This document shows positions 97 to 30,544 of a stretch of 38,328 nucleotides of DNA, piece after piece. The number at the start of each line of letters is the position of its first letter. Position 1 is the stretch's first letter. The DNA lies in assembly GCA_051382295.1 (NCBI GenBank), contig JBBCAW010000083.1, forward strand, positions 1-38,328, read 5' to 3'. The notes beneath the pieces are model-generated. The model was not told the origin of the DNA, searched no databases, and was given only the letters and a program-made list of their open reading frames with translations. This DNA comes from Bdellovibrionota bacterium FG-1 (GTDB taxonomy: Bacteria > Bdellovibrionota > UBA1018). The position numbers and the translations under genes are program-made.

Positions 97-852
97 GTGC
101 ATGTGATTTTATTTTTACGCGGCCCCTTAGGAAGCTTTGGCCTGCGACTCGCCCTTTGCCTGCGAAGAAAGGAACCTCTAGACGCTCCTTTTGTGGCCCT
201 AGGGGTTGGATTTTTAGGACTTTGCTACTTTACCCAGGCCTTTGAATGGCTCGATGGAACGGGGCAAATGCTCACCCATTGGATTGAAAAGCTGGGTGAT
301 TCGCAGGGCCTCAAACATTGGATTTTGGAATCTTTGGAAAAAGCCTCTCATTCTGAAGGGCCCAAGGGATCAGAGATCAATCTCACGGGGGCTGTCGAAC
401 AGATTTTTCGAACCGGCGTGTGGGGTATTGTTTCAAGCTTGGCGGAATTTTTCTTTTTGCTTGCGGCACTTTTTTTGGAAGTCGGCAAAACCGTTCTTTG
501 GCAAATCACTGTTTTTTTATTTCCGCTCGCGTGTGGGCTAATCCCCGTTCTTCCTTCAATCGTTCAGAGCATGATTCGATATGCGGTCGAAATCGCACTT
601 TGGGGGCCAGTTTTGGCCCTCATTGAGATCACCACGAGCGCGGCTGCGCGTAAATATATGACCCAAGAAGGTTCTTGGGGGCTTTACACGGTGGCCGTCG
701 AGATCTTAGCCGTGCTTTTAATCCTGGGAATTCCAAGAGTCACTCACCAACTGGTTTCGGGAGCGGTCCATCCCGGAGGTGTGAGCGAAACCCTCGCACT
801 CATCCGGCAAGCGCGGAACCACTGGAAACCAAAGATGGGGGTTCATTCATGA
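97..852 (+). CDS. Polytopic membrane protein, VirB6/TrbL-like conjugal transfer protein
   Basis: 251 aa with several hydrophobic segments (e.g. VLWQITVFLFPLACGLIPVL, YAVEIALWGPVLALI); ATGA-coupled to the next gene in a conjugation operon. Start uncertain. Confidence 0.55.
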   Translation: MHVILFLRGPLGSFGLRLALCLRRKEPLDAPFVALGVGFLGLCYFTQAFEWLDGTGQMLTHWIEKLGDSQGLKHWILESLEKASHSEGPKGSEINLTGAVEQIFRTGVWGIVSSLAEFFFLLAALFLEVGKTVLWQITVFLFPLACGLIPVLPSIVQSMIRYAVEIALWGPVLALIEITTSAAARKYMTQEGSWGLYTVAVEILAVLLILGIPRVTHQLVSGAVHPGGVSETLALIRQARNHWKPKMGVHS

Positions 853-1187
853 TCATCCTGAGCTGGCTTTGGATTGTGAGTGCTTTTGCAGCGTCAAAGC
901 TCGAAGCCCCGATTTTGGTGTATCCGGGGTACCTCACTCGCATCAGGTGCCAAGGCAGGCTTCTTGCCTCGGCATCGGGCAACCCTTCGCTGATGACCCT
1001 TGAGCCACTCCCTAAGGAAATGGGCTGTGGTGTGTTGCTCCAATCCCATGAAAAACAAGGGCGCACGAATCTGATCTTGGAAACAACGACCGGAACGATC
1101 CATCAAATAGTTGAAATCCGGCCACTAGGAAAAACCCCGCCCAATCCTCAGGATCTAGAACGGGTCTTGGAAGGCGTGGATCGATGA
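849..1187 (+). CDS. Small secreted protein, TraK/VirB9-like (secretin N-terminal-like beta domain)
   Basis: ATG 849 overlaps upstream TGA; signal peptide MIILSWLWIVSAFA; GRTNLILETTTG motif; lies directly before the VirB10-like gene. Confidence 0.45.
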   Translation: MIILSWLWIVSAFAASKLEAPILVYPGYLTRIRCQGRLLASASGNPSLMTLEPLPKEMGCGVLLQSHEKQGRTNLILETTTGTIHQIVEIRPLGKTPPNPQDLERVLEGVDR

Positions 1188-1472: not shown

Positions 1473-3131
1473 CCCCAATTTGACCCACTTTTTATTGACT
1501 ACATTTTCTTAAAAGAGTTTTATCGACCATTTTTAGAATTTCTTCTTGTTTCTTTGTTAAAGCAACCAACCTGTCAATCTTGAAATTATTTTTGGGGTCT
1601 CTCAAATATATTCTATACAATCCATCCAACTCATTAAGAGCTGCTTGAAATGAAAGTCCAAGGGGTTTGACCTTCTCTTTAAGAATGGAAAGAAGCAGAC
1701 AGGACAGGTAACAGATAAATACGTGGGCCTCGACCCGATTGTAAAGCCAGTGACGAATGGGCCGGAGATTCACAACACCTTTTAACGATTGAAAGCATTT
1801 CTCCACTACATCCTTATCGAAGTAAGCTACGATGGCATCTGGGTCAGAATAGTTTGTAGTTGTAAATAGAAACGACATGCCGTCATATATTTTTTCAATC
1901 GCAATTTGCTTTTCATTGACGGAGCCGGTTTGGTTGAAAAACTTTTCTAGTTCTGGTTTAATGCTTTTGCCTTTATCGAGCCGAATCTTTGCGGCGGCAA
2001 TTTCGTCCTGACGGGATTCAGTGATTTCTACAGATTTTCTTGCGTTAAATATTGAGATCAAGCGCCCCGAGACTCCGCCATGGACAAACTTTTGAGATTT
2101 ATAGTAAAAAATTGTACTGCCCATTCGAAGTCTGTTTTTGGAAACACATAGAAGCTGAGGGTTGAAATCTGTTCCAAGATGTTTTCGGATATTGTTGTCA
2201 ATCTTGATGCCACAAAGCACCTTCCACATGTTTTTGCTCATAAAAGCAGTGTTTTCTGCAGAGGTAATTCCTCGATCAATAACCGCCACTCCGCTTGTAA
2301 TCCCAAATTCTGCAAGATCATTTGACACGTCTGAAAATGTTCTTGCGTCATGTATGTTACCTGGAAAAGTTTTATGATAGATTGGGATTCCTAGCTCTTG
2401 TGTTACGGCAAGCCCAATTTGAATCAGTTTGTTGCCTTTCCTTTTCTCTTTGTCATGTCCATATTTAGCCTTGGCGCATTTTTTTCCATGAAAGTAAGTA
2501 TTGGTCACGTCATAAACGATGCCCTTAGTTTTTATTTCGAGAGTTTTTTTAACCCTGCTAAAAATGATCTTCTGTTTTTCAGCAAACGCTTCACTCTCTA
2601 GAGCGTCCAAGGCATTTACCAGTCTCTTCTCGGTAAGTTTGTCTAAAGAGAGAAGTAGATTTAAGTCCGTCTTATTGTACCACCGACGCAGGTGGGTGAG
2701 ACTTTGATAATCTAAGCAATGCGCGTACACCATCGACAAAATCTCGTTCGAATATTCCCCCAAGATCTCTCCAAGTCCAATGCTCTCTGCGATGGAGTGG
2801 AGAACCATCAGGGGCCCCGACAGTCTGACTGATTCAATTGCCGCCTCTGAGATCGAAGTTGATAGGATGGTCTTCCCGTCGGATTCCTTTCCAATATATC
2901 TGATGTATTTATGGATTACCTTACCGTTAACCCTTTTGGATTCCACCTCTGCCAGATAAGTTTTTCCATTCTTCTTTATCTTTTTTATGAAACTCATGTA
3001 GTCAATATTTTATTGACTACAAAAAAATGCAAGCATATTCTCTCTTAAGAGAAAATTTAATTTTTGCGGTTATAAAATTGGGTTTTTAAAGATTTCTAGG
3101 TGTAGGCAATAAAAAGCGGGTCAAATTGGGG
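1473..3131 (-). mobile_element. IS1634-family insertion sequence, 1659 bp
   Basis: Terminal IRs CCCCAATTTGACCC(A/G)CTTTTTATTG(A/C)CTACA (1473-1503 / 3101-3131, 2 mismatches); 6-bp TSD TGGTGG at 1467-1472 and 3132-3137; visibly AT-richer than flanks. Confidence 0.93.
1492..2997 (-). CDS. IS1634-family DDE transposase
   Basis: 501 aa; YDVTNTYF, YGHDKE, PGNIHD, VIDRG, VEKCFQSLK, LRPIRHW...RVEAHVFICYLS motifs. Confidence 0.92.
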   Translation of the reverse strand: MSFIKKIKKNGKTYLAEVESKRVNGKVIHKYIRYIGKESDGKTILSTSISEAAIESVRLSGPLMVLHSIAESIGLGEILGEYSNEILSMVYAHCLDYQSLTHLRRWYNKTDLNLLLSLDKLTEKRLVNALDALESEAFAEKQKIIFSRVKKTLEIKTKGIVYDVTNTYFHGKKCAKAKYGHDKEKRKGNKLIQIGLAVTQELGIPIYHKTFPGNIHDARTFSDVSNDLAEFGITSGVAVIDRGITSAENTAFMSKNMWKVLCGIKIDNNIRKHLGTDFNPQLLCVSKNRLRMGSTIFYYKSQKFVHGGVSGRLISIFNARKSVEITESRQDEIAAAKIRLDKGKSIKPELEKFFNQTGSVNEKQIAIEKIYDGMSFLFTTTNYSDPDAIVAYFDKDVVEKCFQSLKGVVNLRPIRHWLYNRVEAHVFICYLSCLLLSILKEKVKPLGLSFQAALNELDGLYRIYLRDPKNNFKIDRLVALTKKQEEILKMVDKTLLRKCSQ

Positions 3132-3612
3132 TGGTGGGTTCAGAGGCAAGTCCGGCTATCATTGAGCTATCCCAAAATCAGGGGATCTTTTCGGGGCTCA
3201 GGATTTTAGGAAAGGCCCGACCTAGCGCTACTGCTGGCAGACTCCAAATTGACTTGAATCAGTTAGTCGCTCGCTCGGGCCGGACTTTCCCCGTCAAGGC
3301 CGTCGCACTGGATGATGCGGGAGCTCTCGGTCTGGAGGCTCAAGTGTTCTCGGGTAAAGCTCTGGCCTTAGCGGGAGCGATGGCCGCGAGTCTGGTTTCA
3401 GGAGTAGCCGCTTCTCAACAAACGCTCACCCCCACGGTGCTTGGTTTTGGCGAACCGAAACCCACGGGGCGAAATGCTCTCCTTCAGGGAGTGGCACAAA
3501 CCGCCGCCGATCAGTCCCACCGTTTCATTGAAGAAGCGACTCAGGAAAAACCGGTGTTACTTGTGGAACCGGGGGCATTGGTCGCGATCTATTTTGAAGA
3601 GGAGGTCCGCTT

Positions 3613-4134
3613 TTGAAAAAGCAAAAGTTGATCCCGCTCGTCGGGCTTGGGCTCTTTTTGACTCTGCTCTTCATCCTCATCACCCTGGGCTCTGGGTGCT
3701 CGACTGCTCGCGGACGATTCTTATTAGGCGCTGGCCTGGGTGGGGTGGTCACGGGCGCAACAGCGATGGCGCTTTCTCCTAACTCAGCCAGCGTTCCACT
3801 GAACGGCGTTGTCTTTGGTTTAGGAGGTGCTCTTGCCGGGGGGATTGGGGCTCTTTTGCTGATGGATGACAGCACCATTCCGAGCGCGCGGACTTCACTA
3901 AAAACCAAGGAACAAGCCACCGCATCCGAATACACGGCGCCCTATTCGGGAGCGTTCCCAGCCTTTGTTAAAGATCGCCTGCAACCCGTCGTCATTGAAG
4001 AAAACCTCGAGGCCGATTCCGTGAGCGAGGACGGAAGCCTTCATGAACCCCACAAGGTTTATCGCATCAAGCGTCCAGCCGAACTCTTTGCAAGGCCCAC
4101 AAAAACTGAAGCACAAAACAGGAGCACGCCATGA
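3613..4134 (+). CDS. Lipoprotein with glycine zipper and TraV-like C-terminus
   Basis: TTGA-coupled start; lipobox-like LGSGC; Gly-zipper; DGSLHEPHKVYRIKRP resembles the TraV DGxLHxPxxVY motif. Confidence 0.55.
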   Translation: MKKQKLIPLVGLGLFLTLLFILITLGSGCSTARGRFLLGAGLGGVVTGATAMALSPNSASVPLNGVVFGLGGALAGGIGALLLMDDSTIPSARTSLKTKEQATASEYTAPYSGAFPAFVKDRLQPVVIEENLEADSVSEDGSLHEPHKVYRIKRPAELFARPTKTEAQNRSTP

Positions 4135-4194: not shown

Positions 4195-4359
4195 CCACCC
4201 CCGCCCCAGTTTCTCCTTCTTTATTCACCAGTTGCCCCGGTGTCTCTTTGCTTCGCAGTTGCCGACCCCACCCCCGCAACGATGTGCGAGAGTGGGGTCG
4301 GCAACCCAGAGAACTATGGGGCAAATGTAACAAGTATTGGAGGACAGGGGCGGGGGTGG
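4195..4359. repeat. Long nested imperfect inverted repeat; candidate oriT
   Basis: Arms 4195-4207/4347-4359 (13 bp perfect), 4232-4238/4318-4324 (7 bp), 4243-4247/4308-4312, 4258-4271/4292-4305 (14 bp perfect); directly upstream of the relaxase. Confidence 0.75.
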
Positions 4360-4387
4360 TTTTGAAGGGGCAGGAAGGGAGAAGTCC

Positions 4388-5080
4388 ATGTTGAAGATCC
4401 AGAAAAGGGATCAGGAACTCTTGAAACTTTGCTATGAGCAGCAATTTTTATTGATTGAGCAAATCGAGGATTTCTTTTTCTCTCATTGTACGCGGCAGAA
4501 GGCACGGCAGCGAGTCAATGAGTTAGAACAATTCGGATACCTGCTTCATTTGAAAGATCCGATTTTTGGTCAGCGTAAAATTATTCGAATCACCCGGCGA
4601 GGTGAGGAGTTAGCCCGGAGTCAAAGTCATCTCGAAATCCCGCAGCTCAGACGACTCAACGCGGCCACCCTGATCCATGATTCCATCGTCACTTCTGTGC
4701 GGATGAGATTGGCCTCAGTTTGGCCCGAAGCGCATTTTGTTCCCGAGCGGGCGATCAAAAAGCTCGACCTTCCGCAAATTCCAGACGGAGTGTTTTACTT
4801 TCCTAGCGGGAACGGAATCGCCATCGAAGTTGAAAATTCAGCCAAGGGCAAAAAACGTTTTTGCACCCTGATGAAACGATGGAATGGCGTCCCTTCCATC
4901 ATTTTCGTGCTTTATATCGCTACGACACCAGGGCTGAACCGGTGCATCCAAACCTACCTGCCTTTTGCCCCTTTGGATCAACCCATGGGCACCGTCGATT
5001 GGTCTACCTTAAAAACCGCATTTCCTGAGGTGTGGACCCCGCAAGGTAACGTCCCGCTATTTGGCCGGAGGGATTACTAA
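4388..5080 (+). CDS. Replication-relaxation (Replic_Relax, MOB_C-type) relaxase
   Basis: 230 aa; N-terminal winged HTH (KRDQELLKL...RVNELEQFGYL...ITRRG), then LIHD, IPDG and IAIEVE PD-(D/E)xK motifs; SD-like AAGGGAG upstream. Confidence 0.82.
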   Translation: MLKIQKRDQELLKLCYEQQFLLIEQIEDFFFSHCTRQKARQRVNELEQFGYLLHLKDPIFGQRKIIRITRRGEELARSQSHLEIPQLRRLNAATLIHDSIVTSVRMRLASVWPEAHFVPERAIKKLDLPQIPDGVFYFPSGNGIAIEVENSAKGKKRFCTLMKRWNGVPSIIFVLYIATTPGLNRCIQTYLPFAPLDQPMGTVDWSTLKTAFPEVWTPQGNVPLFGRRDY

Positions 5081-8000
5081 TGTTTCGAGAGCAATGGGCT
5101 TTGGCCGGAATCACAGCGGGCGCGATGTCGGGGATCTTCCTTACGCGTCATTTTGACCTTTTCCGTAAACGCGGCTTGGGTATCCGGGTTGGGAGATCGT
5201 GGATTTCAGACGAGGCAAGGCTGAGACACACCCACATCGTCGGGGCCACGGGCACCGGCAAAACCGTATTGCTAGAGCAATTGATCTGTGAGGACATTAA
5301 GCGCGGTAATGGAGGGCTCATTATTGACCCCAAAGGAGATCGCGAACTCTATGAGCGGGTACGCGCGGAGTGCAAAAAACTGGGGCGCGAAGGGGACCTG
5401 CATTTGCTTTCGGCCACCCACCTGGATGAAAGCTCTGTCTGGAATCCCTGCGGACTAGGTAATGTTTCAGAACTTCAGAGCAAGTTCTTTAATTCCGCGA
5501 TTTATGAAGAACCCCATTACGCTAAATGGTGCGAACGCGCGCTCCTACAAGCCTTTAATGAACTCGTCCCCGAGTGGCCGCAAGGCTTCACCGTCGCCGA
5601 TCTCGTGAAACGCCTCGAAGATTTTGTGCAGTCTAAAAAAGGCCAGGACCAAAAGATGGAAGGGCTATTTTTGGATCTCTATAATCTGGCAAACGGGGAA
5701 TGGGGGCCGATTCTATGTTGTGGGAAATCGACGTTCCAAAAACCGGAAATTTCCCTTTTGGATATTACGCAACGCAATCAAATCTTATTCGTCGACCTTC
5801 CTACCGAGGCCAAGAAAGTTCAGAGCGCCCGAATCGGCCGGCTTCTCACTCAAGAACTCATGCTGATCTCGGGTCTAAGGAAGATTCACCCCGGGATCAA
5901 ATCAGAAAAACCTTTCTCCGTGTACATCGACGAATTTGACGCCTTCGCTACTGAAAGTTTTGCCACTTTTCTCAATAAAGGTCGCTCCAGCGGTTTCATG
6001 ATCCACATTGCTCATCAGACGTTGAGTGATCTCAATCAAGTAGGAGAGGACTTCGCAGGGCAGATTCTCGGAAATTGCAATGTTCGCTTCATCTTTCGCC
6101 AGGATGACCCAGATGATGCTGAACGTTGGTCGCGATTTATTGGAACGCGAAGATCGACTAAGCGAACCTATCAAACTCAAAACGGGGTTAAAACCGGAAT
6201 GTCCTCGAACCGAGAGGTTCAGGAGTTTGTTATTTCCCCGGATCGCATTAAAAATTTAAAAATCGGCCAGACTGTCTTGTCGGTCAAAACCAGCGGTATT
6301 TGTAAGGTCATTCGACTCAAATTTAAGCCAACGAAACTTGCCGGGGTAGAGGGTCCAAAAACTATCGACGCCCCCCTCAGCCGAGGCACCGGCCTTGAAG
6401 CGCGTCGCGATCTTTCACCCGAAAAATTTGGTCAGCCCCCAAAGGCGTCTCAAGGTCCAACGGCGAGCAAGTGGCAGCAAGTCAAAAAAATCAGTTCTGC
6501 AATTGTTCTCAGTCTTTTGTGCACCTCCTGTGCCTTTCACCCTTCGCCCACACCGGAACACCCGGAAGGTGAGCCGTCTCCCCAGGTTTCAAGTCAACCT
6601 GCAAGCGAATCTGCGGGCCACCCTACCGAGCAATCAACTCGAGAGTTGCCAGCGCAGCCTGCAGTCCCTTCACCTTCGATCACCCCCGTAACGTCTCCAT
6701 CCCCAAGTCCTTCACCTTCGGCGATTTTTCGGGACGGGGCGCTACTTTCTATTTCAGTGGGCTGGGAAGGCCAAGAAAAACTCATAGAGCTTTCGGCAAC
6801 GGAATTTACGAAAAAGGACTCCACTACCTATGGGAGGGAGCTCCCGATTAGCCTTCCGGCAAAGGTCCCCGAGGAGGTGACCTTCAAGATCCTGCTCAAC
6901 CAGGAGGTGCGTAAGCTGGAGAATCGGCGCATAGAGGCCTATTCCGTCGGCGGAAATGGACTGATGTCGCACTCGATTGGAGTTAAGCAAATCAGCGTGA
7001 CCTCTGGCGATCTTGGAACCACAATCAACGCCTGTCTTCAGGGGCTCCCGCTCCTTTTGTCCAACAAGGAGGAACAACGGGCTTTCATTTCCATTCGCAT
7101 TCTTTCAGAAAATAGAATTGAAATGGAGTTTAAAGCCCTTTTGGTGACCCCGCCTTCTCAATTGGTTCAAATCCCCCGGGATCAGTTTACCCCAAAACTG
7201 CCTGCCACCTTGAACAGTCAAGCCTTGGAACTGAAACAAATCGATCGAGTAGCCTTCCTGAATCGTTCATGGGCACCGATCAGTCTGAGCCTGCCCTTTA
7301 TCCAAAAGGCCAAATTTACAGCCCGGTTAATGCACTTTGAGATTTCAGAGGTTCCAACCGAACATGTGGCCCTTCACTATTCTATTCCGTCTATCCAAAC
7401 TCAGGTGCGGGAGTCAGAGCTTCTCGTCGTGCCCAATTTACCTGGGATTGAATCAAACTGGCCTCGCCTATCCAATGAGGATTACCGCAGGGTCACGATA
7501 CAGCCCGGGGAACAGTTAGAGATTGGTTTCTATGCACCCAAGGCAATAAGCGATTTTTTGGCGCCCTTACAGAAACTAACGTCTCATACCGTTCGCACGA
7601 CCATCGACAGCGCGGCTCGATGCCCCGATGGGTATCTTAACGACTTTCCGGTTTCAAAAGCTGGAGATGAGGGGCGTTGGTACTGCCTACAGCTCAACAG
7701 CGGAATGGGATATTCCTTCACCGACGAAGGCATTCAAGCTTGCTGTGATTCGGTCGTTCTCATGCGAAAATGCGTGGCATCGAATTGGGCACGAGAGCCC
7801 TGCAATGCCGCAGCCTTGGCCGACGACAAAGTAGACCGGCTTCGGGTTCCTCGGCCCGGAAGTACCATTCCATGGCCAAGTTGGTTGGGATGTCGCCGGG
7901 TGGAGAATACTACAGACGGTAGCCACCTTTACTTTATCCATAAGGCCTGGACTTGGGAGGCTGTTGAAGGAGATTTGCCCGAAGGCCTCCAATTTTTGGA

Positions 8001-8136
8001 CTCCCACGCTGAACTCATCGAAAACGATGCAGCTGAGGGTGTCATGCGCTTTGACCTCGGAAATCCGGCCGCAAACAGAGAGGGCCGGACCCTGCAGCTA
8101 TTTGGCAAAATTTTACCCATCAAAAACCGAGGATAA
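5080..8136 (+). CDS. VirD4/TraD-like type IV coupling protein with ~550-aa C-terminal lipoprotein-like extension
   Basis: Walker A GATGTGKT, IIDPKGD, Walker B VYIDEF, GRSSG..IAHQTLSDL in the first ~415 aa; then VKKISSAIVLSLLCTSC, a Pro/Ser-rich linker and a Cys-rich domain. Confidence 0.85.
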   Translation: MFREQWALAGITAGAMSGIFLTRHFDLFRKRGLGIRVGRSWISDEARLRHTHIVGATGTGKTVLLEQLICEDIKRGNGGLIIDPKGDRELYERVRAECKKLGREGDLHLLSATHLDESSVWNPCGLGNVSELQSKFFNSAIYEEPHYAKWCERALLQAFNELVPEWPQGFTVADLVKRLEDFVQSKKGQDQKMEGLFLDLYNLANGEWGPILCCGKSTFQKPEISLLDITQRNQILFVDLPTEAKKVQSARIGRLLTQELMLISGLRKIHPGIKSEKPFSVYIDEFDAFATESFATFLNKGRSSGFMIHIAHQTLSDLNQVGEDFAGQILGNCNVRFIFRQDDPDDAERWSRFIGTRRSTKRTYQTQNGVKTGMSSNREVQEFVISPDRIKNLKIGQTVLSVKTSGICKVIRLKFKPTKLAGVEGPKTIDAPLSRGTGLEARRDLSPEKFGQPPKASQGPTASKWQQVKKISSAIVLSLLCTSCAFHPSPTPEHPEGEPSPQVSSQPASESAGHPTEQSTRELPAQPAVPSPSITPVTSPSPSPSPSAIFRDGALLSISVGWEGQEKLIELSATEFTKKDSTTYGRELPISLPAKVPEEVTFKILLNQEVRKLENRRIEAYSVGGNGLMSHSIGVKQISVTSGDLGTTINACLQGLPLLLSNKEEQRAFISIRILSENRIEMEFKALLVTPPSQLVQIPRDQFTPKLPATLNSQALELKQIDRVAFLNRSWAPISLSLPFIQKAKFTARLMHFEISEVPTEHVALHYSIPSIQTQVRESELLVVPNLPGIESNWPRLSNEDYRRVTIQPGEQLEIGFYAPKAISDFLAPLQKLTSHTVRTTIDSAARCPDGYLNDFPVSKAGDEGRWYCLQLNSGMGYSFTDEGIQACCDSVVLMRKCVASNWAREPCNAAALADDKVDRLRVPRPGSTIPWPSWLGCRRVENTTDGSHLYFIHKAWTWEAVEGDLPEGLQFLDSHAELIENDAAEGVMRFDLGNPAANREGRTLQLFGKILPIKNRG

Positions 8137-8138: not shown

Positions 8139-8378
8139 ATGAAAATGGAAGAATTAATCGAAAAAGAACTCAATCAGACTTATCCTGATAAGGCATTCTT
8201 AACCATTCAAGAGGTGGCGGAGCTGATGCGTTGTAGTCCTGAAATCGTTTATAATTGGACAAAAAGGGCAGATGCCGCTCGCCGGCCTCCAAAGTTGTCC
8301 GTTGGAAAAGAGATTCGCTTTCCTAAGGTTCCATTCGCTCATTGGCTTGCCCAAGAAACGGGAGTTTCGCGCGAATGA
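8139..8378 (+). CDS. Excisionase-like helix-turn-helix protein
   Basis: 79 aa; FLTIQEVAELMRCSPEIVYNW...VGKEIRF; ATGA-coupled to the integrase. Confidence 0.85.
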   Translation: MKMEELIEKELNQTYPDKAFLTIQEVAELMRCSPEIVYNWTKRADAARRPPKLSVGKEIRFPKVPFAHWLAQETGVSRE

Positions 8379-9853
8379 TTTTAGTACGCACCAACATTTA
8401 CAAAAAGAAGGAGCGTAGCGGCCGCATCGTGTGGATGGTGAGGTGGAAGGATCCTAAAACCGGAAAGTGGCAGGCGGCTAAGGGTGGGGATGACGAGGCC
8501 GAGGCGGTCGCCTATGAAACCCGAGTGAGAGAATGTTTATTTCGAGGTGAGAACCCTATTTGGGAAGGAAAACCAGAAGAACCTCGACCAACAGTCCGGG
8601 CTGTCGCCGATCAACTTTATCAAAGCACCCGATTTCTCGGGGGTACCGAAGAATGGCAGGATGCTGTTCGTAGTAAAATTGAAGGGCAAATCATTCCGCA
8701 CCTGGGATCCGTGGTTTTTGAAGATCTTACCGAAGAACAAATTTTTAGTTTTTATCTTAAACTCAAAGCAGAAGGACGGACCCACACCACTCTTCATAAA
8801 TATCACATCGTCATGGCGCTGCTGGGAACGATCTATGAGGCTGGAACGGGTCGAACGCAAAATCCAGTGCGGTCTTGCCGTGATTTTCGAAAGCGTTTTC
8901 CACGTCAGGCCTCCAGCAGGGATATCAATTTTATTACGCCACAGGAGCTCACTCTTTTGTACGCCGCTGCTTCCAAGTCGAGAAATCGACTTCTTCTTCC
9001 TCTGATTCAGTTTCTTGCAAATACCGGCTTACGGCGAATGGAGGCCCTCGACCTCAAATGGACCGACGTTGACGAGAATTCCGGCTTTATTCATGTGCGT
9101 GACAGTAAGAATGGAAAGGCAAGAACGATACCGCTCGATGTTGATGCTCGCCTTGCGCTCAGGGGTCTCATCAAGAGATCCGACTATATTTTTGTGAATG
9201 AAAAGGGTGAGCGCTATTATCGGGACTCTTTTTTAAAACCCCTCCAAGGGGCTGCCCGACAAGCCGGGATTAATAAACGAGTCGACCTTCACAGCCTTCG
9301 ACACAGCTATGGATCGAATAAGATCCGAATGGGTTGGGGATTGAAAAAGGTGTCACGACTCCTGGGGCACTCCAGTATTGAAATCACCTCAAAAGTTTAC
9401 ACCCATCTATTGGATGGCGATCTTAAGGTAAGTGATGACGCGCGATTCGCCTTTGACAACAAACTTGAATCGGCTGATATTGATCAATCGGAAGGGGATA
9501 CTGCCAGCACTATGGCGAGCGCACTTGCAAAAATGCTTACCGAAAAGCTAACAGAAAGCCCGCTTGGCCGAGAGGCACTCCTGCAGATTCTTCAGACATT
9601 GCCCTCTAGCGACAAATCCCGAGACTTTCAGCAACTTCCTGCGACTTCTAGCCAGATCCAGCCCGATTTCCAAGAATCGGCCCAAACCGCCCCTCTTGCT
9701 ACGCTAATGCTACGCAAAAGCAAAAAGCGCCCCGGGGTGCCCCCAGCAGCGCTTGGTGTTGTCTCTGATTTCTCTTTGATTTCAGCTATTTCAAATGGCG
9801 GACCCGAGAGGGTTCGAACCTCTGACCTTCGCATCCGTAGTGCGACGCTCTAA
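8375..9853 (+). CDS. Tyrosine recombinase (integrase) with ~130-aa C-terminal extension ending inside the tRNA
   Basis: TGLRRME (R), SKNG (K), HSLRH, LLGH, KVYTH (Y) catalytic motifs; N-terminal arm-binding-like region; 492 aa. Confidence 0.93.
   Translation: MILVRTNIYKKKERSGRIVWMVRWKDPKTGKWQAAKGGDDEAEAVAYETRVRECLFRGENPIWEGKPEEPRPTVRAVADQLYQSTRFLGGTEEWQDAVRSKIEGQIIPHLGSVVFEDLTEEQIFSFYLKLKAEGRTHTTLHKYHIVMALLGTIYEAGTGRTQNPVRSCRDFRKRFPRQASSRDINFITPQELTLLYAAASKSRNRLLLPLIQFLANTGLRRMEALDLKWTDVDENSGFIHVRDSKNGKARTIPLDVDARLALRGLIKRSDYIFVNEKGERYYRDSFLKPLQGAARQAGINKRVDLHSLRHSYGSNKIRMGWGLKKVSRLLGHSSIEITSKVYTHLLDGDLKVSDDARFAFDNKLESADIDQSEGDTASTMASALAKMLTEKLTESPLGREALLQILQTLPSSDKSRDFQQLPATSSQIQPDFQESAQTAPLATLMLRKSKKRPGVPPAALGVVSDFSLISAISNGGPERVRTSDLRIRSATL
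9697..9715 (+). repeat. Tandem TGCTACGC direct repeats, candidate integrase arm-type sites
   Basis: TGCTACGC at 9697-9704 and 9708-9715 (11-bp period), ~80 bp from the tRNA 3' end. Confidence 0.45.
9722..9754 (-). terminator. Possible intrinsic terminator downstream of tRNA-Arg
   Basis: Stem AAGCGC/GCGCTT (9725-9730/9749-9754) with inner GGGG/CCCC, ending in a T run on the minus strand. Confidence 0.4.
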
Positions 9854-9873
9854 TCCAACTGAGCTACGGGTCC
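9796..9873 (-). tRNA. tRNA-Arg (anticodon ACG), CCA encoded
   Basis: Minus strand: GGACCCG acceptor stem, GCTC/GAGC D-arm, TCGCA-CTACGGA-TGCGA anticodon arm, AGAGG-TTCGAAC-CCTCT T-arm, CGGGTCC-G-CCA; 78 nt. Confidence 0.97.
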
Positions 9874-10489: not shown

Positions 10490-10600
10490 TGGTTTCGTGC
10501 TTGAATCCTACCGACGGTGATGGTTTTTTATAAGGCATATCTGTCGTTATGCGATGGAGCCGGAGCTAAGGTTGGTTTCGGGCAAGCTAAAGGTAGGCTG

Positions 10601-13351
10601 ATGAAACGACATCTGGTTTGGTGTGTGGGGATGGGTCTGCTTGGCGCGGTGAGCGTTCAGGCCAAATCAACGGTTCCGCCAGCGCTGCAGTCGTTGCTGC
10701 GATTTCACCCCGGCTGGGTGACGCGCTCAGTGACTAGCCATGATCCATCGGGTGGGAACGGCGATGGTAATGGCAACGGCATTAAGGCCGAAGGAGATTA
10801 CCAGGTCTTATTTCACGCAAAAGGTGAGGGCCGAGTCACCCGGCTTTGGATGACTGCCCATTGGGATGAAGAAGTTCCAAAAGACTGGCAGGAACTCTGG
10901 ATCGTGATCGACGGACAGACCGCTTACCGTGGGAACCCCGCTGATTATTTTGCAGGACGCGGACCCTGGCAAGCCCCGCTGGTGATGGATTATCAACAGT
11001 CGTCAGGTGGCTATGTGAGCTATGTGCCCTTTGCATTTTCGCATGAGGCTAAAATCCTCTTTAAAGGGATACCCCACTATTTTCAGGTGAATTATCGTCA
11101 GGGTGCGGGTTCGGCGGAAGGACCATCGGCAAGTGAACTCTCGAGGCTGATGAGTGAACATTGGTGGGCCGCGACCGAAGCAAAGCCCCAACAACCGTTG
11201 CATGTGGCTCCCGGAGGAACCGTTTTGGCTGCGGGGCCCGTGACCGTTGAAGATCTGTCTATCACCATTGCGCCGCAGGATCTTTCTCGTCTGCAAATTA
11301 AAATCGGGGAGCAAAAACCAGTTCCGCTTTCTTTCTTTTTTGGTTTAGGAAGCACAGGTCTTGAGCCCCTGGATGGAGGATGGGGTGATGTGACGAGCAT
11401 CATTCATCACGTCGACGCTCAAACGCACCGTTTTTCGACGCGGTTGCCTATTCCTTTGCAGGCCGGAGAGCGATTGGTCATTGAAACCCGGGATCACCAA
11501 GATGCCGCTGTTCAATATCAGCTGGCCCAAACTCAAGCCCTATTTCCTGGCGTGCATTTAGTGGCCCAATACCGCGATCAAATGGGCTCGGGCTTGGAAA
11601 CCACTCTTCCTTTTTTTGAATCGCAGGGACCCACGCAGTTCGTTTCGTTGATTGAAGAAATTACGGATGGGCAAAAGGGCAGTCGTCAGTTTCTTGAGGG
11701 AGACGAGATGATCCGTACGGATCGGATGAGCTATCCTGTGCAACTTGGAACTGGAACCGAGGATTACTTTAATGGTGGGTGGTATTTCCTCAATGGCTTT
11801 AGTAATCCGATGTCGGGCCTCACTCGTTTTGTGGTCAACGATCCCGAAGACGACTGGGCTCATGCGCTTTATGAGCATTCGCTTTACCGCAATCATGTTG
11901 CTGATGTGATTGTCAGTCGGGGTCCGATGCGTTTTGGCTTCGAAGCCGGAGATCTGGGTGCCTATCAGCCCGTACGGTATCGCACTCTGGGGTTGGCTTA
12001 TTCCTTTGATCGATGGTCATCTTCTCTTCGCATGGATGTAGCGCTCGATCGAGTGACCACTCTCGGACGCTCAAGTGAGAGTTTGGTCAGCTCGGCTGTG
12101 GATGCGGAGCGGTTGCAGCCGATTCAGAATTTTAGGGTCCGAACGGGGTTGGGGCGCTCACAATTTAAAGTCGGTTGTCCGACTCATCAAACTCCGGCTG
12201 GATTGTTCTTAATGAGAACCTATGATGCAGCCCGCGGAGATCAAGAAGCCCGGTTGTCCGTCAATGGTCGAGCCGTGGGAACTTTGTTTGAGGCTTATGC
12301 CAATTCTGTTCGTCGTTTTGCGCAAGACGGGATTTGGGTAGACTTATTGCCCTTAGATTGTCCTAAAGGTGCAAACGGGGTCATGACATTTGAACTTGAC
12401 TCGAGCCATTCGGCTGCAGACTGGACCGAGGCGTCCTATGAGGTCACTTGGTATAATGACACAGGGGCAGCTGACGAAGGGACTCCGCTCAGACAGGGAG
12501 ATGCCTTTCAAATTTTAGATACCTCTTCAGTCGACGGTGGCCCGCATTATGTCAACGACCATAGCCTGGTTCAGGGCAAGGACGGCCGATGGCACCTCTA
12601 TGGTATTTATCATCAGGAGCCGTTTGATCCCGAACATGAGTTTGATTTTGTGCATGCGGCGTCTACGCAACCCACCGAGAATTTGAGTGCGGACCTCAGC
12701 ACAATGAAACTTTCGGTTGAGGGGATTGTGCTGACAAAAGACGCTTCCATTGGAGAGCATCATCTTTGGGCGCCGCATATTATTCAAGAGGGTGACCGCT
12801 ATCTGATGGCCTACCAGAGTGGGGGGATAGACAATGATCAGGCCCAAATTCGATTGGCGACCTCATCAGATCTAACTCATTGGGCACGTGTGGGGTCAGA
12901 ACCCTTATTTACGGATATCTGTGTCGCCCGCGATCCGATGATCAAAAAATGGGGTGATCTTTGGACCCTTTATTACACTCGGTGCGATGACATCCATTCG
13001 CGCCGAAGTGGCGTCGCCTATCGGACATCTCTGGATTTGATTCATTGGAGCGAGCCCAAAATGGCGCTGGTTTTGAGTGAAACTCCAGAAATGTTTAATT
13101 CGGGTTATACGGAGTCGCCCTTTGTCTTTGAAAAGGACGGTTGGTACTATCTTTCGGTGACGTCTTATCCGATCGAGTGGAATGCCACGATGGTTTATCG
13201 CTCACGATCTCCTTTTTCGTTTCCGGCTTCACTTTTTTCCCGTCTGGAAGCGCATGCCGCGGAGTGGCTTTCCGACCCAGATGGCGGACTTTGGATGACT
13301 TCGGCAGGGACGGGGCAGGGCGGTGTGTGGATGGCGAAGGTCTTTCGTTAG
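10601..13351 (+). CDS. Secreted bimodular glycoside hydrolase: DUF2961/GH172 plus C-terminal GH32/GH43-like five-bladed propeller
   Basis: 916 aa; signal peptide MKRHLVWC...VQA; LEGDE and GTGTEDYFNGGWYF (DUF2961); YVNDH, LWAPH, ARDP, TESP (furanosidase propeller). Confidence 0.8.
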   Translation: MKRHLVWCVGMGLLGAVSVQAKSTVPPALQSLLRFHPGWVTRSVTSHDPSGGNGDGNGNGIKAEGDYQVLFHAKGEGRVTRLWMTAHWDEEVPKDWQELWIVIDGQTAYRGNPADYFAGRGPWQAPLVMDYQQSSGGYVSYVPFAFSHEAKILFKGIPHYFQVNYRQGAGSAEGPSASELSRLMSEHWWAATEAKPQQPLHVAPGGTVLAAGPVTVEDLSITIAPQDLSRLQIKIGEQKPVPLSFFFGLGSTGLEPLDGGWGDVTSIIHHVDAQTHRFSTRLPIPLQAGERLVIETRDHQDAAVQYQLAQTQALFPGVHLVAQYRDQMGSGLETTLPFFESQGPTQFVSLIEEITDGQKGSRQFLEGDEMIRTDRMSYPVQLGTGTEDYFNGGWYFLNGFSNPMSGLTRFVVNDPEDDWAHALYEHSLYRNHVADVIVSRGPMRFGFEAGDLGAYQPVRYRTLGLAYSFDRWSSSLRMDVALDRVTTLGRSSESLVSSAVDAERLQPIQNFRVRTGLGRSQFKVGCPTHQTPAGLFLMRTYDAARGDQEARLSVNGRAVGTLFEAYANSVRRFAQDGIWVDLLPLDCPKGANGVMTFELDSSHSAADWTEASYEVTWYNDTGAADEGTPLRQGDAFQILDTSSVDGGPHYVNDHSLVQGKDGRWHLYGIYHQEPFDPEHEFDFVHAASTQPTENLSADLSTMKLSVEGIVLTKDASIGEHHLWAPHIIQEGDRYLMAYQSGGIDNDQAQIRLATSSDLTHWARVGSEPLFTDICVARDPMIKKWGDLWTLYYTRCDDIHSRRSGVAYRTSLDLIHWSEPKMALVLSETPEMFNSGYTESPFVFEKDGWYYLSVTSYPIEWNATMVYRSRSPFSFPASLFSRLEAHAAEWLSDPDGGLWMTSAGTGQGGVWMAKVFR

Positions 13352-21091: not shown

Positions 21092-21931
21092 TCAGGGTGT
21101 GGCTGCGGGTGCCCGAGCCACGTCTCGTTTTGTATTATTCGCATTTTCTGGCAAAGCGCCTCCACCGGCAAGTGGATTGGGTTTTGTAGTATTTTCAGAC
21201 TGATAGTAGAGATAAAAGCCCGCAAAAATCCGATTAGGATCGTGGATCATTTGCCGGTTGTTTTCCCACAACGTTCGCCATTTCGAACGCGTTCCGTAGA
21301 CTTCTCCAGAAATTCCCCCCAGCGTATCTCCCGCTTTGATCAAATAGCGCTCGCCGTTCTTTTGGAGGGCAAATGAAGTGGCGGGCCTTTCTACTTTAAG
21401 CACTGTGCCGGCTGGAATTTGGTTCGGGTTTGGAATTTTATCGCGGTTGGCTTCCAAAACTGATTTCCAACGATAGAGGTCGCCATAAGTTTCAAACGCG
21501 ATCTTCATCAGAGTGTCGCCGCTTTGGACAGTGTAGTGACTGAACTGTTCACCGTCTGGGGCAGAAACGGGAGCGACGGGAGCTGAAGTTTGTGCTGCTG
21601 CCACGGGTTGAGGGGGCGCTGGCTCTGCCACGGCAACAGCTGGCGCGGGTGCTGGCTGTGCATCAGTAGGAAGTTCGGGCTGGGTCTGGGCTTCGGTTTT
21701 CGGTGGATCGACTGGAAGGGCGGCCTGACCATCGACTGGGGGCGGGGTGTCTGGGTTGGTTGGATCTGCAGCGGCCACTTCCGCACTGGGTGGAACCGCA
21801 TCAGTGGCTGCATCGCCTGGAGGAAGGTTGGGGTCTTGTCCTTCACTGCTCGCAGTAGGGGAAGACGAGCAGCCTTGGGTAAGTGCCCCCATGATGACAA
21901 TGACGAGCGCTAGAAATAGATTTTTGTTCAT
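21092..21931 (-). CDS. Lipoprotein with Pro/Ala-rich linker and two LysM domains
   Basis: Lipobox-like TQGC; YTVQSGDTLMKIAFETYG and YLIKAGDTLGGISGEVYG repeats. Confidence 0.9.
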   Translation of the reverse strand: MNKNLFLALVIVIMGALTQGCSSSPTASSEGQDPNLPPGDAATDAVPPSAEVAAADPTNPDTPPPVDGQAALPVDPPKTEAQTQPELPTDAQPAPAPAVAVAEPAPPQPVAAAQTSAPVAPVSAPDGEQFSHYTVQSGDTLMKIAFETYGDLYRWKSVLEANRDKIPNPNQIPAGTVLKVERPATSFALQKNGERYLIKAGDTLGGISGEVYGTRSKWRTLWENNRQMIHDPNRIFAGFYLYYQSENTTKPNPLAGGGALPENANNTKRDVARAPAATP

Positions 21932-21975
21932 AATATCAACCCCTTTGATTGGCAAAAGCCGAGTCTCTAGGGATT

Positions 21976-22003
21976 ACATCGGAACAAAAGCCGGCTTTCT
22001 TTA
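21976..22003 (-). promoter_or_regulatory. Putative sigma28 promoter for the LysM gene
   Basis: Minus strand TAAAG-N15-TCCGATGT, same spacing as the site upstream of PilT/PilU. Confidence 0.45.
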
Positions 22004-23245
22004 GGGTTTTAGGTAGGCATGGACATTCTTAATGCTCAGCGCTGTGCATTTAATTGATGAGGCTTGGCCCATGGAGTGAACTGCAACATGAATCATAGCC
22101 GTCGGCTGATCGTAAGCTGTCTGTAATGCTGAAGCTTCATTCAGCGTATCTAAGCCGAGCGTGAAAAATCCCGGAGTCCCAGACGCCAAGTTGATGTGAG
22201 TCGACCAAGTCAATGAGGCGCCCAGAAAAACATCAATAGCGATGCCAGCCCCTCCGTTTATGTCAGTTACTAAAGGATTAGCTGGAAAGCAGCTGGAGGG
22301 GGAGCCTGAAACCGCGCCGCCTGCTCCTGTTACATCGATTTGAACCGAGCCAAATTGAGCGAGAGGGTACATCGAAGCATCAAACACAAAATCCACGCGT
22401 TCATAACCCGATCCGAAATCAGCCATTATTATGGGAGTCATGTTGGTCGGATCCGTCAGCAACGCTAAATCGGCTCCTGTAATCGGCGATAGGCCAGGGG
22501 GCGTTTGGGTAGGAGGGCTGAGAGACTCAACAAAGTTCGCCGGACTTGAAGCGATGGTCCCATGATAAACGCCTACCAACAGCAAGGAAACAGGACTGGC
22601 ACTTGAAGGACTTGGAGTCGGACTTGGAGTCGCAGTCGGACTTGGGGTCGCACTCGAAGTAGGTGTAGTTTCGGGTATGGGAGTATAGGCAGGTGGTCTC
22701 GTATCACAGCCGAAGGGGTAAGGATTCCATGTGACCGTTGAATCGACGCCAAACGTGTTTTGAATTTCGACTTGGGAATCTCGAAACAGATCGGTCACGG
22801 TTCGGCCAAGTTCAGAGATGACATAGGGCTGGTAGGCGTTGGTGACTGATGGATATTTTGCCCACATCGCCTCTTCAAAGGATTGGATATTTGCATAGTT
22901 GCCGCAAGAAGCGCCCGGGGGCAATTGAATGCCGATCATCTGAATGGTCCGTTGGGATCCAGACGGTACCTTGAGCGAAATAGTGGTGGAGGACGAATCC
23001 ACAAGAGAGGACGTCATGCCCCGGTAGGGACAACCCGGCTGCATTGAATTTCCCTGTATTCCCGAGCCATAAACATTGACGGCAAAACAATTAAAATCAC
23101 TCAAAACCCTGGTCGAAGTCAGCCCCTGAATCTTGGCTGGAGACCGTTCGGGCATCGCAATATGGACCTGGATGTAATCGGGGTTAGGCGACAACGAACA
23201 GCCTAGCAAACAGCTCATTCCCACGGCCGCAATCAAGTTTTTCAT
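22001..23245 (-). CDS. Hypothetical lipoprotein, two domains joined by a (T/S)P-repeat linker
   Basis: Lipobox LLGC; ATGA-coupled to the FecR gene; TPSPTATPSPTPSPSS linker. Confidence 0.75.
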   Translation of the reverse strand: MKNLIAAVGMSCLLGCSLSPNPDYIQVHIAMPERSPAKIQGLTSTRVLSDFNCFAVNVYGSGIQGNSMQPGCPYRGMTSSLVDSSSTTISLKVPSGSQRTIQMIGIQLPPGASCGNYANIQSFEEAMWAKYPSVTNAYQPYVISELGRTVTDLFRDSQVEIQNTFGVDSTVTWNPYPFGCDTRPPAYTPIPETTPTSSATPSPTATPSPTPSPSSASPVSLLLVGVYHGTIASSPANFVESLSPPTQTPPGLSPITGADLALLTDPTNMTPIIMADFGSGYERVDFVFDASMYPLAQFGSVQIDVTGAGGAVSGSPSSCFPANPLVTDINGGAGIAIDVFLGASLTWSTHINLASGTPGFFTLGLDTLNEASALQTAYDQPTAMIHVAVHSMGQASSIKCTALSIKNVHAYLKP

Positions 23246-24249
23246 TTTTTGAATACCACCGTGAGGTTGATCGGCATTCCTGGCACGAGGGTGTTGGCGC
23301 CAGGGTTAGAAGAGGGCCCAAAAGTGCCAGGCGAACCGATTTGGCCGGCATTCGGTACGAAATCAGGAGTGGACGAGAGCGTGGAGCCCATGGCGGAAAG
23401 GGTCGAAATTCCAGAGGATGGGCCACTTTGAGAATTTTCTATCGTAATGGCTTGCTTAAATGTCTTGTCCTCAATTTTGGTCTCTTGAACGACCGTCTTC
23501 ATCTGTGCGACAGAAAGCTCCACGACTTTGGCCTCCGGAGCGGAGGCAGACTTTGCCACCGGCTTGTCGCCTACCACTTGCGAGACAGTCGTTAACTGTT
23601 CGCCCTTGTTCACCGCGATCGGAGCTTTCTTGGGTGCGGCCTTTTCACTGACCTCCACTTTACCCTCAATCACGGTAATTTGGGTTTTGACCGAGGTGCC
23701 CTTGGAACCACCAGAGGCCGCTTTGTTGCCAGAATGTCCGGCTCCCGCTTTCTCCTGAGGCTTGGGAGGTGCGATTTCGCCCAAATCCGAGGCAATAATA
23801 AATTCAGTGCCGCGTACGCCCATCGTCGCTGTTTTCGTGCGAATATTGTATTTGCCGTTGGCCCCCACGGGCGTATTGACCGCTGCGCGCACCTTGCCGT
23901 AGGACATTGTCATTCCAACATTTCGATCCGAGCCATTTTTTATTTGGTATTCGTCGACTCTAAAAAGAGTGGAACCACCCAAATCTAAAACGGAGCGGTC
24001 CGTGAATAAAAGTTTGGCCGAGGCTGAACTCGAGGTGTTGATCACGTCCCCTTTGTAGATTTCCTCGCCGGCTTTCAGTTTTCTCATTTTAGGGAGGCCG
24101 GTTTTCTCACCCTCGTCGTTGCGAATGAGTACCTCGCCCGCTGCGCTCACCGCTTTAGCGGCGACCACAGGAGTGGGGGCCGCAACCGAAAGACTGGTGC
24201 CCATGCTAAGAAATATGAGAACAGGCCAAACATTTGACAAAAGAATCAT
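23242..24249 (-). CDS. Secreted FecR-domain protein
   Basis: Signal peptide; GDVINT, LLFTDRSVLDLG, GKVRA, IRTKTATMGVRGTEF, VIEGKVEV. Confidence 0.88.
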   Translation of the reverse strand: MILLSNVWPVLIFLSMGTSLSVAAPTPVVAAKAVSAAGEVLIRNDEGEKTGLPKMRKLKAGEEIYKGDVINTSSSASAKLLFTDRSVLDLGGSTLFRVDEYQIKNGSDRNVGMTMSYGKVRAAVNTPVGANGKYNIRTKTATMGVRGTEFIIASDLGEIAPPKPQEKAGAGHSGNKAASGGSKGTSVKTQITVIEGKVEVSEKAAPKKAPIAVNKGEQLTTVSQVVGDKPVAKSASAPEAKVVELSVAQMKTVVQETKIEDKTFKQAITIENSQSGPSSGISTLSAMGSTLSSTPDFVPNAGQIGSPGTFGPSSNPGANTLVPGMPINLTVVFKK

Positions 24250-27688: not shown

Positions 27689-27748
27689 AAAAAAATGCCC
27701 GGTTCAGTGGCACCGACCTTGCTTTAGTCGATCCCGCCAAATCGGGCA
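27689..27748 (-). terminator. Hairpin plus T7 run: candidate terminator of a minus-strand (antisense) RNA
   Basis: TGCCCGGTT (27696-27704) pairs with AATCGGGCA (27740-27748), with inner TGGC/GCCA and CGAC/GTCG stems; A7 at 27689-27695. Confidence 0.45.
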
Positions 27749-27793
27749 GAGTAGACGGACTTATCTCCAATTCAACAGATTGGAGGTGATTCT

Positions 27794-27934
27794 ATGAAGC
27801 GTAAAAACACTCGCTATTACGCTTTTCGGCTCAAAGTAGAAAAAATGAAGCTAAAATCTTGGCGGCTCTATGTCTTTGCTAAGATTCTGGTTTTTCTACT
27901 GCAACTGCTTGCTGACTGCTTAAGACAAACGTGA
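27794..27934 (+). CDS. 46-aa basic/hydrophobic peptide, candidate type I toxin (absent from the supplied ORF track)
   Basis: MKRKNTRYYAFRLKVEKMKLKSWRLYVFAKILVFLLQLLADCLRQT; strong SD GGAGGTG (27782-27788) inside hairpin 27761-27789. Confidence 0.65.
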   Translation: MKRKNTRYYAFRLKVEKMKLKSWRLYVFAKILVFLLQLLADCLRQT

Positions 27935-28018
27935 GGGGTGCTCTGGGTATAGCATTAACCGGAGTTCTCACGGAAAGAGAGCTGCCCGATTTGGTTCTTT
28001 ATCGTTGTGGTTGCCCGG

Positions 28019-28447
28019 CTACTCGTTACTTACGCTTTCCAGCCATGCGACGTAATCGGCAACTGATACCGCCTCGACCTTGCCCTGAAGTGTTTTCGGA
28101 AAGTCTGCTAGATTCCCAGTGACGAGACATGCGCCCTGTTGAGCAGCGAGCGCGAGAAATACGGCATCGTCCCGGTCTGGAAGGTCTATGTAGTGGGAGA
28201 GTGGTGGATCTGATGGAACGTGTACTGCCTGGCGCAGAAACTCCTCAAACCAAAGTGGCGGAAAGTTCCAGCGCTTGAACTTGGGCCGAGCGAGGACCTC
28301 CCGATATTCCTGCACAATTGTCGGGCAAATGATGGGCGAGATATCTCCTCGTAACGCGTGGATAAGAATCCGCGCAGGCTTAGAGCCAGCTTTAAGTGCC
28401 GCGGAAACGAGAACATTTGTATCAATGACGACGCTTCGGTTGAGCAT
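28019..28447 (-). CDS. PIN-domain toxin (VapC-like), type II TA
   Basis: VVIDTNVLVSA, EYREVL.RPKF, DRDDAVFL, LVTGNLADF; overlaps the upstream antitoxin. Confidence 0.9.
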   Translation of the reverse strand: MLNRSVVIDTNVLVSAALKAGSKPARILIHALRGDISPIICPTIVQEYREVLARPKFKRWNFPPLWFEEFLRQAVHVPSDPPLSHYIDLPDRDDAVFLALAAQQGACLVTGNLADFPKTLQGKVEAVSVADYVAWLESVSNE

Positions 28448-28715
28448 GGGTACTCTTGCGGACGGCACGGACCTCGGCATTGATCTCCTCGTCTGTCATC
28501 CGGTCTAGGCCGGCCTCTCGGGCGAGTTTCCAAGTTTCGGATAGGCTCTCCAGAGCCAGCATTTTCTGAACTTCCTGTTGGATACGTGGGAGCGACTCGG
28601 ATGTAACAGGTATAAGCACACCGACCGGGCCCTTTCGGCTGGTCACAACGACCGGTTCATTGCCGATTGCCTTTCCGCCCTTCTGCTGGAGTTCACGTAA
28701 GCTCTTAGCATTCAT
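28422..28715 (-). CDS. Phd/YefM-like antitoxin
   Basis: SLRELQ...EPVVVTSRKGPVGVLIPV; C-terminal MTDEEINAEVRAVRK; upstream of the PIN gene. Confidence 0.8.
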   Translation of the reverse strand: MNAKSLRELQQKGGKAIGNEPVVVTSRKGPVGVLIPVTSESLPRIQQEVQKMLALESLSETWKLAREAGLDRMTDEEINAEVRAVRKSTHAQPKRRH

Positions 28716-28722
28716 ACGAACG

Positions 28723-28764
28723 ATTGTAAGCGTATTGTCTACATTTGTCAACGGTATGCTTACA
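28723..28764 (-). promoter_or_regulatory. sigma70 promoter and inverted-repeat operator of the Phd-PIN operon
   Basis: TTGACA-N17-TACAAT-N7-ATG; IR TGTAAGCGTA/TATGCTTACA (28725-28734/28755-28764, 9 of 10). Confidence 0.75.
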
Positions 28765-28875
28765 TAATCTTGAGGGGGTGTCCTTGAGAGAATCTTGCTT
28801 GTGATTGTGCTGAGGCTTGTATCGCCATACCTTGGGAAACCTATTTCTGGAATTGCAGGGGGCAGACGCCATAAG

Positions 28876-30533: not shown

Positions 30534-30544
30534 TCGATTGGCCT

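Follow-up and report, generated by a model that had tools for sequence, protein, structure and literature searches.

How can a conjugation ATPase and an exported lipoprotein be encoded as one uninterrupted protein, and what becomes of such a protein? The question is raised by a 38,328-nucleotide stretch of DNA from Bdellovibrionota bacterium FG-1 (assembly GCA_051382295.1, contig JBBCAW010000083.1, forward strand), here called the window; it is the whole of contig C83 in a 4.4-Mb assembly of 158 contigs. Positions 5080-8136 of the plus strand form a single frame of 1018 amino acids without a stop, as the initial annotation had stated and translation confirmed. Judged by its sequence, the product is a type IV coupling protein (T4CP) ATPase (aa 1 to about 467) joined to a complete lipoprotein precursor: a T4CP family member with a new C-terminal build, linked to an adhesin-like lipoprotein of an unnamed family. 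It belongs to a compact integrative and conjugative element (ICE) of Bdellovibrionota, where the T4CP and the lipoprotein are usually two coupled genes, and is a derived fusion of these. We give a probability of about one half to the reading that the fusion is a polyprotein cut by the Lgt/signal peptidase II pathway, with the signal staying behind as an anchor of the ATPase; release by signal peptidase II appears to be the best-fitting mechanism. The parts of the frame are as follows.

5080..6300, plus strand: T4CP; short, weakly hydrophobic N-terminal anchor at aa about 7-25, core end at aa about 404
6301..6480, plus strand: variable T4CP tail (aa about 408-467), continuing into the lipoprotein without a stop, start or Shine-Dalgarno (SD) box
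6481..6531, plus strand: internal lipoprotein signal peptide; KK n-region, hydrophobic (h-) region, lipobox C-T-S-C484
6532..6723, plus strand: Pro/Ser-rich tether (aa 485-548), longer than in most homologues
6724..7161, plus strand: immunoglobulin (Ig)-like beta-sandwich 1 (aa about 550-694)
7162..8133, plus strand: domain 2, Ig/PapD-like and discontinuous; its long beta-strand insertions form the stalk and bear the cysteine-rich helical tip
about 7621-7944, plus strand: cysteine-rich helical tip (aa about 848-955), on the domain 2 insertions

The N-terminal part matches the Pfam families TraG-D_C (1.7e-16), TrwB_AAD_bind (1.6e-15) and T4SS-DNA_transf (3.1e-8) above the cut-off, and scores under the cut-off of every NCBIfam TraD/VirD4 model. 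The Pfam matches stop at aa 394-405, and T404 is the last invariant column in an alignment of 11 T4CPs, close to the domain end near aa 415 proposed initially. The Walker A motif GATGTGKT is at aa 55 and the Walker B motif YIDEFD at aa about 282-287. The ten closest T4CPs in genome contigs, all from Bdellovibrionota records, are 53-72% identical. As in the T4CPs VirD4, TraD and TrwB (PF10412, PF12696, PF02534), there is a Walker A/B core and a putative N-terminal membrane segment, and the gene lies between the relaxase and the integrase module. The MobC-type relaxase directly upstream and the TrbI-like gene, with virB4 and virB2 in relatives, agree with this assignment. T4CPs are described as having an N-terminal transmembrane domain and sometimes a variable C-terminal domain (PMC7431656). 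However, the window protein has one weak putative N-terminal helix instead of two, and its extension, preceded by an internal signal, is predicted to be a complete lipoprotein of the exported type.

From nt 6481 (aa 468) onwards the encoded sequence is VKKISSAIVLSLLCTSC, beginning GTC AAA AAA ATC. This was initially taken for a lipoprotein-like signal, and we agree. Nowhere else in the 1018-aa protein does a 19-residue window exceed a Kyte-Doolittle value of 1.4 as residues 468-486 do. The features of a lipoprotein signal follow in the order KK-ISSAIVLSLL-CTS-C484, with an h-region hydropathy of 1.88, and the segment aligns in position and Cys motif with the N-terminal signals of standalone homologues. 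The complete homologues start with a signal peptide ending x-G/S/A-C-A-F/W. The reported Pro/Ser-rich stalk (aa about 488-548) and seven cysteines (across 848-938) were also found; further cysteines are at aa 481, 484 and 652, and eight are in the mature part. Neither GC content nor third-position GC (GC3) has a step at the junction.

The signal in the window is internal and lacks an N-terminal gene start of its own. There is no in-frame ATG, GTG or TTG from 6277 to 6517. The SD duplex upstream of 6481, scored against the anti-SD motif, is -4.8 kcal/mol, an ordinary value (29% of in-frame positions score as low), compared with -5.6 to -11.7 in all 15 separate junctions and -11.0 at the start of the T4CP itself. 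Since there is no in-frame start or SD box near 6481, the lipoprotein is obtainable only from the fused frame. One short deletion (3k+2 nt, starting from a 4-nt overlap) may have removed the SD box, the start and the stop together. The end of the ATPase core is 83 aa from the Cys in the window fusion, and the sister loci L001 and L002 have tails of 83 and 74 aa plus signals of 19 and 15 aa; the spacing fits a small deletion, although tails range from about 54 to 101 aa. The hint in the initial annotation that GTC is one base from GTG is thus unneeded: a mutated GTG would also require a frameshift and loss of the SD box, three changes in all, for which one short deletion would account. Also rejected was -1 slippage of the canonical kind in the A7 run, as there is no in-frame X XXY YYZ.

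The fusion recurs. Two other proteins, P0022 (1006 aa) and P0023 (1296 aa), have a T4CP part 53% identical to that of the window and a C-terminal part from the same lipoprotein family (BLASTP 2e-32, HHalign 99.6%) behind an internal lipobox, the h-region and lipobox being at aa 512 and 519, respectively. They are the two close long proteins among T4CP relatives of 559-1782 aa, and a search among proteins longer than 953 aa again returned these two and no others. Most relatives have two genes, yet these are fused, so that the initially considered case of all relatives being separate does not hold. Walker A and B are intact in all three fused T4CPs. The hydropathy of the three h-regions (1.70-2.15) is within the standalone range (1.03-2.91). 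Among the 116 GTDB genomes of the order, a frame of about 1000 aa was found in one of 46 T4CP matches, the window's own. A class-wide search with P0022 found neither its source nor another long frame. A metagenome scan yielded four close and two distant T4CP loci, and none of the complete close ones, which were taken into the T4CP comparison given below, is fused. No relatives were matched in viral contigs, and plasmids gave solely T4CP-domain matches with at most 29% identity.

In the T4CP tree (27 rows) the fusions stand apart, and three changes are forced by starred branches. A single clade of fusions, and thus a single origin, is rejected by the approximately unbiased (AU) test (p 8e-5; 23 rows, without two outgroups and the long branches L009 and L042). 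The lipoprotein tree (44 rows, FastTree, many long branches) likewise requires three changes. The trees suggest three separate fusion origins, one old fusion followed by many splits being far less parsimonious. The recurrent T4CP-lipoprotein fusion is very probably real.

The C-terminal module is a member of an unnamed family of lipoproteins of about 450-510 aa. HMMER with this part found 18 homologues of 109-533 aa at E<=0.001 among 1.84 billion representatives; the lack of long homologues there is uninformative, because the fused P0022 was missed too. By its signal peptide, every complete standalone homologue that was inspected appears to be a lipoprotein. Matches to the family profile occur in 28 of the 116 genomes of the order and in 27 of 401 in a sample of the phylum. 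None of 22 members has a Pfam match under E 0.06, and P0002, a standalone member, has no NCBIfam match. The best hit of the family profile among PDB sequences has E 0.16, i.e. no match; a word-index search with the C-terminal part alone gave no matches, and the ESM Atlas no usable match for the module.

In the common layout, the lipoprotein gene is directly downstream of the T4CP gene in compact Bdellovibrionota ICEs. The 15 junctions available as DNA comprise ten 4-nt overlaps, one 1-nt overlap, one 13-nt overlap and three gaps of 10-22 nt; stop/start overlaps of this kind are described as accompanying translational coupling (PMC6728339, PMC10666635). Among 41 distinct T4CPs, the lipoprotein is a separate next gene in 16, is fused in three and is absent despite sufficient room in 14; six have a short flank and two have no DNA. 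One of the 14 is half of a split T4CP with the lipoprotein behind it, which leaves 13. In a second layout (L052, L054, L056, L057), a family member heads the operon of the type IV secretion system (T4SS), before o173-like, virB2-like and virB4-like genes. In L050 (5758-8862) the lipoprotein directly follows o173, and the relaxase and T4CP are missing. As for the suggested capture of a cargo lipoprotein gene, a complete precursor was indeed fused, but random cargo is rejected: the lipoprotein is the usual next gene of the ICE and stays with T4SS genes in the second layout. Some members are longer, namely P0023 (aa about 520-850, some 300 extra residues) and L033:511-2772 (753 aa), possibly with additional Ig-like repeats lengthening the base.

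If the fusion is a polyprotein, the ATPase would fold in the cytoplasm, and the internal h-region, with basic residues before it, would enter Sec as a signal-anchor, the C-terminal module being exported. Lgt would then lipidate Cys484 and signal peptidase II would cut before it. Both enzymes are described as recognising their substrates within the membrane by h-region and lipobox (PMC9360617). One product would be a normal mature lipoprotein, the other a T4CP that retains the signal helix at its C-terminus as an additional membrane anchor, able to offset the weak N-terminal one. The numbers of K/R before and after the internal segment are 5/0 in the window, 3/2 in P0023 and 3/3 in P0022, and with this pattern the segment should insert N-in, C-out. 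Internalised prolipoprotein signals were reportedly found still to be processed by Hayashi et al. in 1985; those were engineered fusions, whereas the window fusion is natural, repeated and part of a conjugation system. In Bradyrhizobium, signal peptidase I separates the respiratory subunits of the FbcH polyprotein. Both signals are internal, but that of the window candidate is of the lipoprotein type and belongs to a conjugation system.

The N-terminal anchors are consistent with the proposed reuse of the signal. On a 19-residue Kyte-Doolittle score, which ranges from 0.94 to 2.70 over 40 T4CPs (L092 was dropped as cut at its 5' end), the single N-terminal segment of the window T4CP scores 1.06, the second weakest, and the other two fused proteins 1.13 and 1.29, so that the fusions occupy ranks 2-4 from the weakest (p 0.004 by the rank test, both on this scale and on a Hessa scale). 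Complete N-termini are also shortest in the window protein and P0023, with 54 and 68 aa before Walker A. In most systems examined, transfer is described as depending on the T4CP transmembrane domain (PMC7431656), and a spare anchor could therefore be important. A broader scenario can be offered tentatively, as one somewhat short of probable: a lipoprotein-pathway polyprotein would have evolved at least three times, releasing a new kind of adhesin, with the signal reused as an anchor, decay of the N-terminal anchor and a 1:1 output of motor and adhesin. If processing does occur, this would be a natural case of a lipoprotein signal placed internally, 470 residues behind the N-terminus. It would also show that the C-terminal end can serve to anchor a T4CP, a point relevant to the role of the T4CP membrane segment.

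A number of observations weigh against the polyprotein. Position -3 of the lipobox is Cys and not Leu, Val or Ile, the same being true of standalone P0002, and the Leu consensus given in PMC9360617 is not matched. The P0022 junction is not net basic (3 K/R and 4 D/E before the segment). The anchor test is post hoc, with three cases and with near-copies among its 37 controls, and the weakest anchor (0.94) is that of the unfused sister L001; thus the weak anchor in the window lineage may predate the fusion. P0022 and P0023 are known as protein only, and internal GTG/TTG starts or assembly errors are possible there. The 13 T4CPs with enough flank and no lipoprotein behind them indicate that it is dispensable at that place. 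Furthermore, the window element is damaged: an insertion sequence (IS) of the IS1634 family splits the virB10-like gene, the 5' part of the operon is missing, and no close virB4 or virB2 was found in the assembly, the best virB4 matches elsewhere in it having 29-40% identity over about 100-140 aa. The element is probably unable to transfer by itself. Such damage also fits a tolerated lesion, in which overlapping operon genes fuse occasionally with no selected role, may cripple one or both proteins, and persist in elements that do not transfer. Three fusions at other junctions in 14 loci (virB6-like with g110 twice, virB4 with g230 once) point the same way, as do the isolation of each fusion as a lone lineage without a close fused relative (members: P0001, one; P0023, one; P0022, four) and its rarity, one in 46, in the order. 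However, both halves, the relaxase, xis and int are full length, the h-region and lipobox are kept at all three junctions, and the weak-anchor pattern would not be expected. We consider a tolerated lesion rather unlikely; were it correct, the family would still be new and the fusion a curiosity.

The retained lipobox also bears on whether the internal segment might be a permanent transmembrane helix, by which an ATPase hexamer would hold the Ig domains, stalk and tip in the periplasm. Such a T4CP architecture would be new and could serve to sense the channel or to scaffold it. The single frame, the N-in/C-out topology in the window and the long Pro/Ser tether would suit such an arrangement, and bitopic proteins with a late transmembrane segment, such as RodZ, are described as targeted by SecA (PMC9360617). 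However, all three fusions retain the lipobox Cys together with its flanking residues, the h-region would make a short and weak permanent membrane segment (Hessa-scale sums 1.5-5.5), and the standalone form is predicted to be a lipoprotein throughout; an uncut tether is accordingly improbable. Still less likely is an assembly artefact hiding two genes, by an indel or collapse at the junction, e.g. in the A7 run at 6484-6490. The assembly resembles a metagenome-assembled genome in its fragmentation, T4CP and lipoprotein are separate genes in 16 of 19 complete neighbour pairs, and the junction is without read cover: run X1, the one listed run with element sequence (pieces 95-99% alike elsewhere in the element, share 0.05), has nothing at 5601-7600. 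No RNA run with window sequence was found among the sequencing runs listed. On the other hand, the gain or loss of a single base in the A run would produce an overlap of about 100 or 220 nt, compared with -13 to +22 nt in 15 relatives, and would leave a poor SD box (-3.8 for GTG at 6471). A single base error does not explain the loss of both start and SD box, and two other fusions exist.

The lipoprotein is confidently modelled (pLDDT 92.7) as a pair of Ig-like domains with a beta stalk, which ends in a cysteine tip that is hypervariable; a single-sequence fold of the C-terminal module gave pLDDT 32.9 and no confident model. The conserved cysteines of the family alignment are kept in the window copy. 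Ig-like sandwiches of the RhoGDI/PDE6D/UNC119 and PapD/MSP/ASH types are among the closest known folds. Foldseek against PDB and viral structures gave no whole-protein match (TM-score <0.2), the stalk and tip not being searched alone, and TraN and fusexins were absent among the matches listed, where domain 1 dominates. Fusexins and class II fusogens are trimers with a domain I-II-III fold whose Ig domain and membrane anchor are C-terminal, whereas here the Ig domain and anchor are N-terminal. In 44 sequences the tip has 11-149 aa with a median of six Cys, and a mean identity of 9% compared with 14-18% in the Ig parts. Relative to L001, the T4CP is 68% identical and the lipoprotein 23% (172 aa, local).

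Because the tip is hypervariable, the lipoprotein diverges from L001 faster than the T4CP does, and the gene stays with the T4SS in two layouts, the protein is most likely, by analogy, a cell-contact adhesin working like TraN, with an Ig base, a stalk and an exchangeable cysteine tip. TraN, the adhesin that stabilises mating pairs in F-type plasmid systems, is described as a donor-encoded, elongated, cysteine-rich beta protein with a variable tip and at least 20 Cys (PMC9246713). The window lipoprotein similarly has a conserved base and a hypervariable, presumably disulphide-rich tip, and travels with a T4SS. However, 22 members lack a Pfam match, and the mature window protein has eight Cys instead of at least 20 (two to ten in paired relatives). 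The predicted anchor is a lipid, not an amphipathic helix, and the modelled tip is helical, not a beta-sandwich, so the likeness would be one of function only. The exchangeable tip offers a direct candidate determinant of recipient specificity. Among the titles and abstract beginnings searched, with little subscription literature, neither a T4CP-lipoprotein fusion nor a study of these ICEs was found; in the available text of a 2025 T4SS review (PMC12857230), 'fused' and 'fusion' refer to engineered relaxases.

Beyond the fusion, the unnamed family comes with an ICE layout of about 12 kb in relatives of predatory bacteria: virB2-like, virB4-like, g230, virB6-like, g110, virB10-like, o173, relaxase, T4CP, lipoprotein, xis, int. 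Several of these labels rest on sub-threshold Pfam matches or on position. The full set of integrase and Xis at a tRNA, relaxase, T4CP and T4SS is present in L043-L048 and L055. In the compact layout (these loci and L001-L003), there are about seven T4SS genes, of which g230, g110 and o173 have no Pfam family above the cut-off, and no clear VirB8 or VirB9 was found. The T4SS part of the window copy is interrupted and partial. The other genes of the element are as follows.

97..852, plus strand: VirB6-like membrane gene, labelled by position and hydrophobicity; matches relatives from nt about 127-130
849..1187, plus strand: g110, conserved transfer-operon gene of about 110 aa
1184..1483, plus strand: 5' piece of the virB10/trbI-like gene, matching aa 22-103 of the L005 homologue
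1473..3131, minus strand: IS1634-family element within the virB10-like gene; 31-bp inverted ends, 6-bp target duplication, low GC (41-45%)
3131..3616, plus strand: 3' piece of the virB10/trbI-like gene (Pfam TrbI, 6.7e-15)
3613..4134, plus strand: o173, conserved lipoprotein-like gene of 173 aa; glycine zipper
4337..5080, plus strand: MobC-type (Replic_Relax) relaxase, stop overlapping the T4CP start by 1 nt; both matches below the curated cut-off
8139..8378, plus strand: excisionase-like HTH_17 protein (8.5e-8)
8342..9853, plus strand: tyrosine integrase (Phage_integrase, 7.8e-34)
9796..9873, minus strand: tRNA-Arg, antisense to the 3' end of the integrase gene and overlapping it; probable integration site (attachment site, att, by position)

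The contig start (1-129), abutting the virB6-like gene, is a repeat identical to the ends of C155, C135 and C46; it is probably one end of a further insertion element, at which the assembly broke off. No second att copy was found, including near a virB4. A 171-bp stretch (9697-9867) is 75% alike on C78, and a 23-nt exact piece of it is on C140, which has another virB4. Distant T4CP/virB4 genes elsewhere in the genome (C81:3950-5107, C95:4-774; C140, C115, C24) might act in trans. The virB6-like and g110 genes are fused in L002:2621-3721 and L049:11796-12944, and virB4 and g230 at L043:4490, a locus in which the T4CP is also split.

Outside the element, the window encodes a 944-aa protein with DUF2961 and GH43 domains (10517-13351). 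FecR-domain, 414-aa unknown and LysM-domain genes are in a row on the minus strand (21092-24249), with short Pro/Ser-type repeats at about 22608-22655. A non-coding segment of about 280 bp (27707-27997) is repeated more than ten times on other contigs in diverged form (69-78%), including tandem copies on C12 and C22. A PIN-domain gene is located near an AbiEi-type antitoxin gene on the minus strand (28019-30554).

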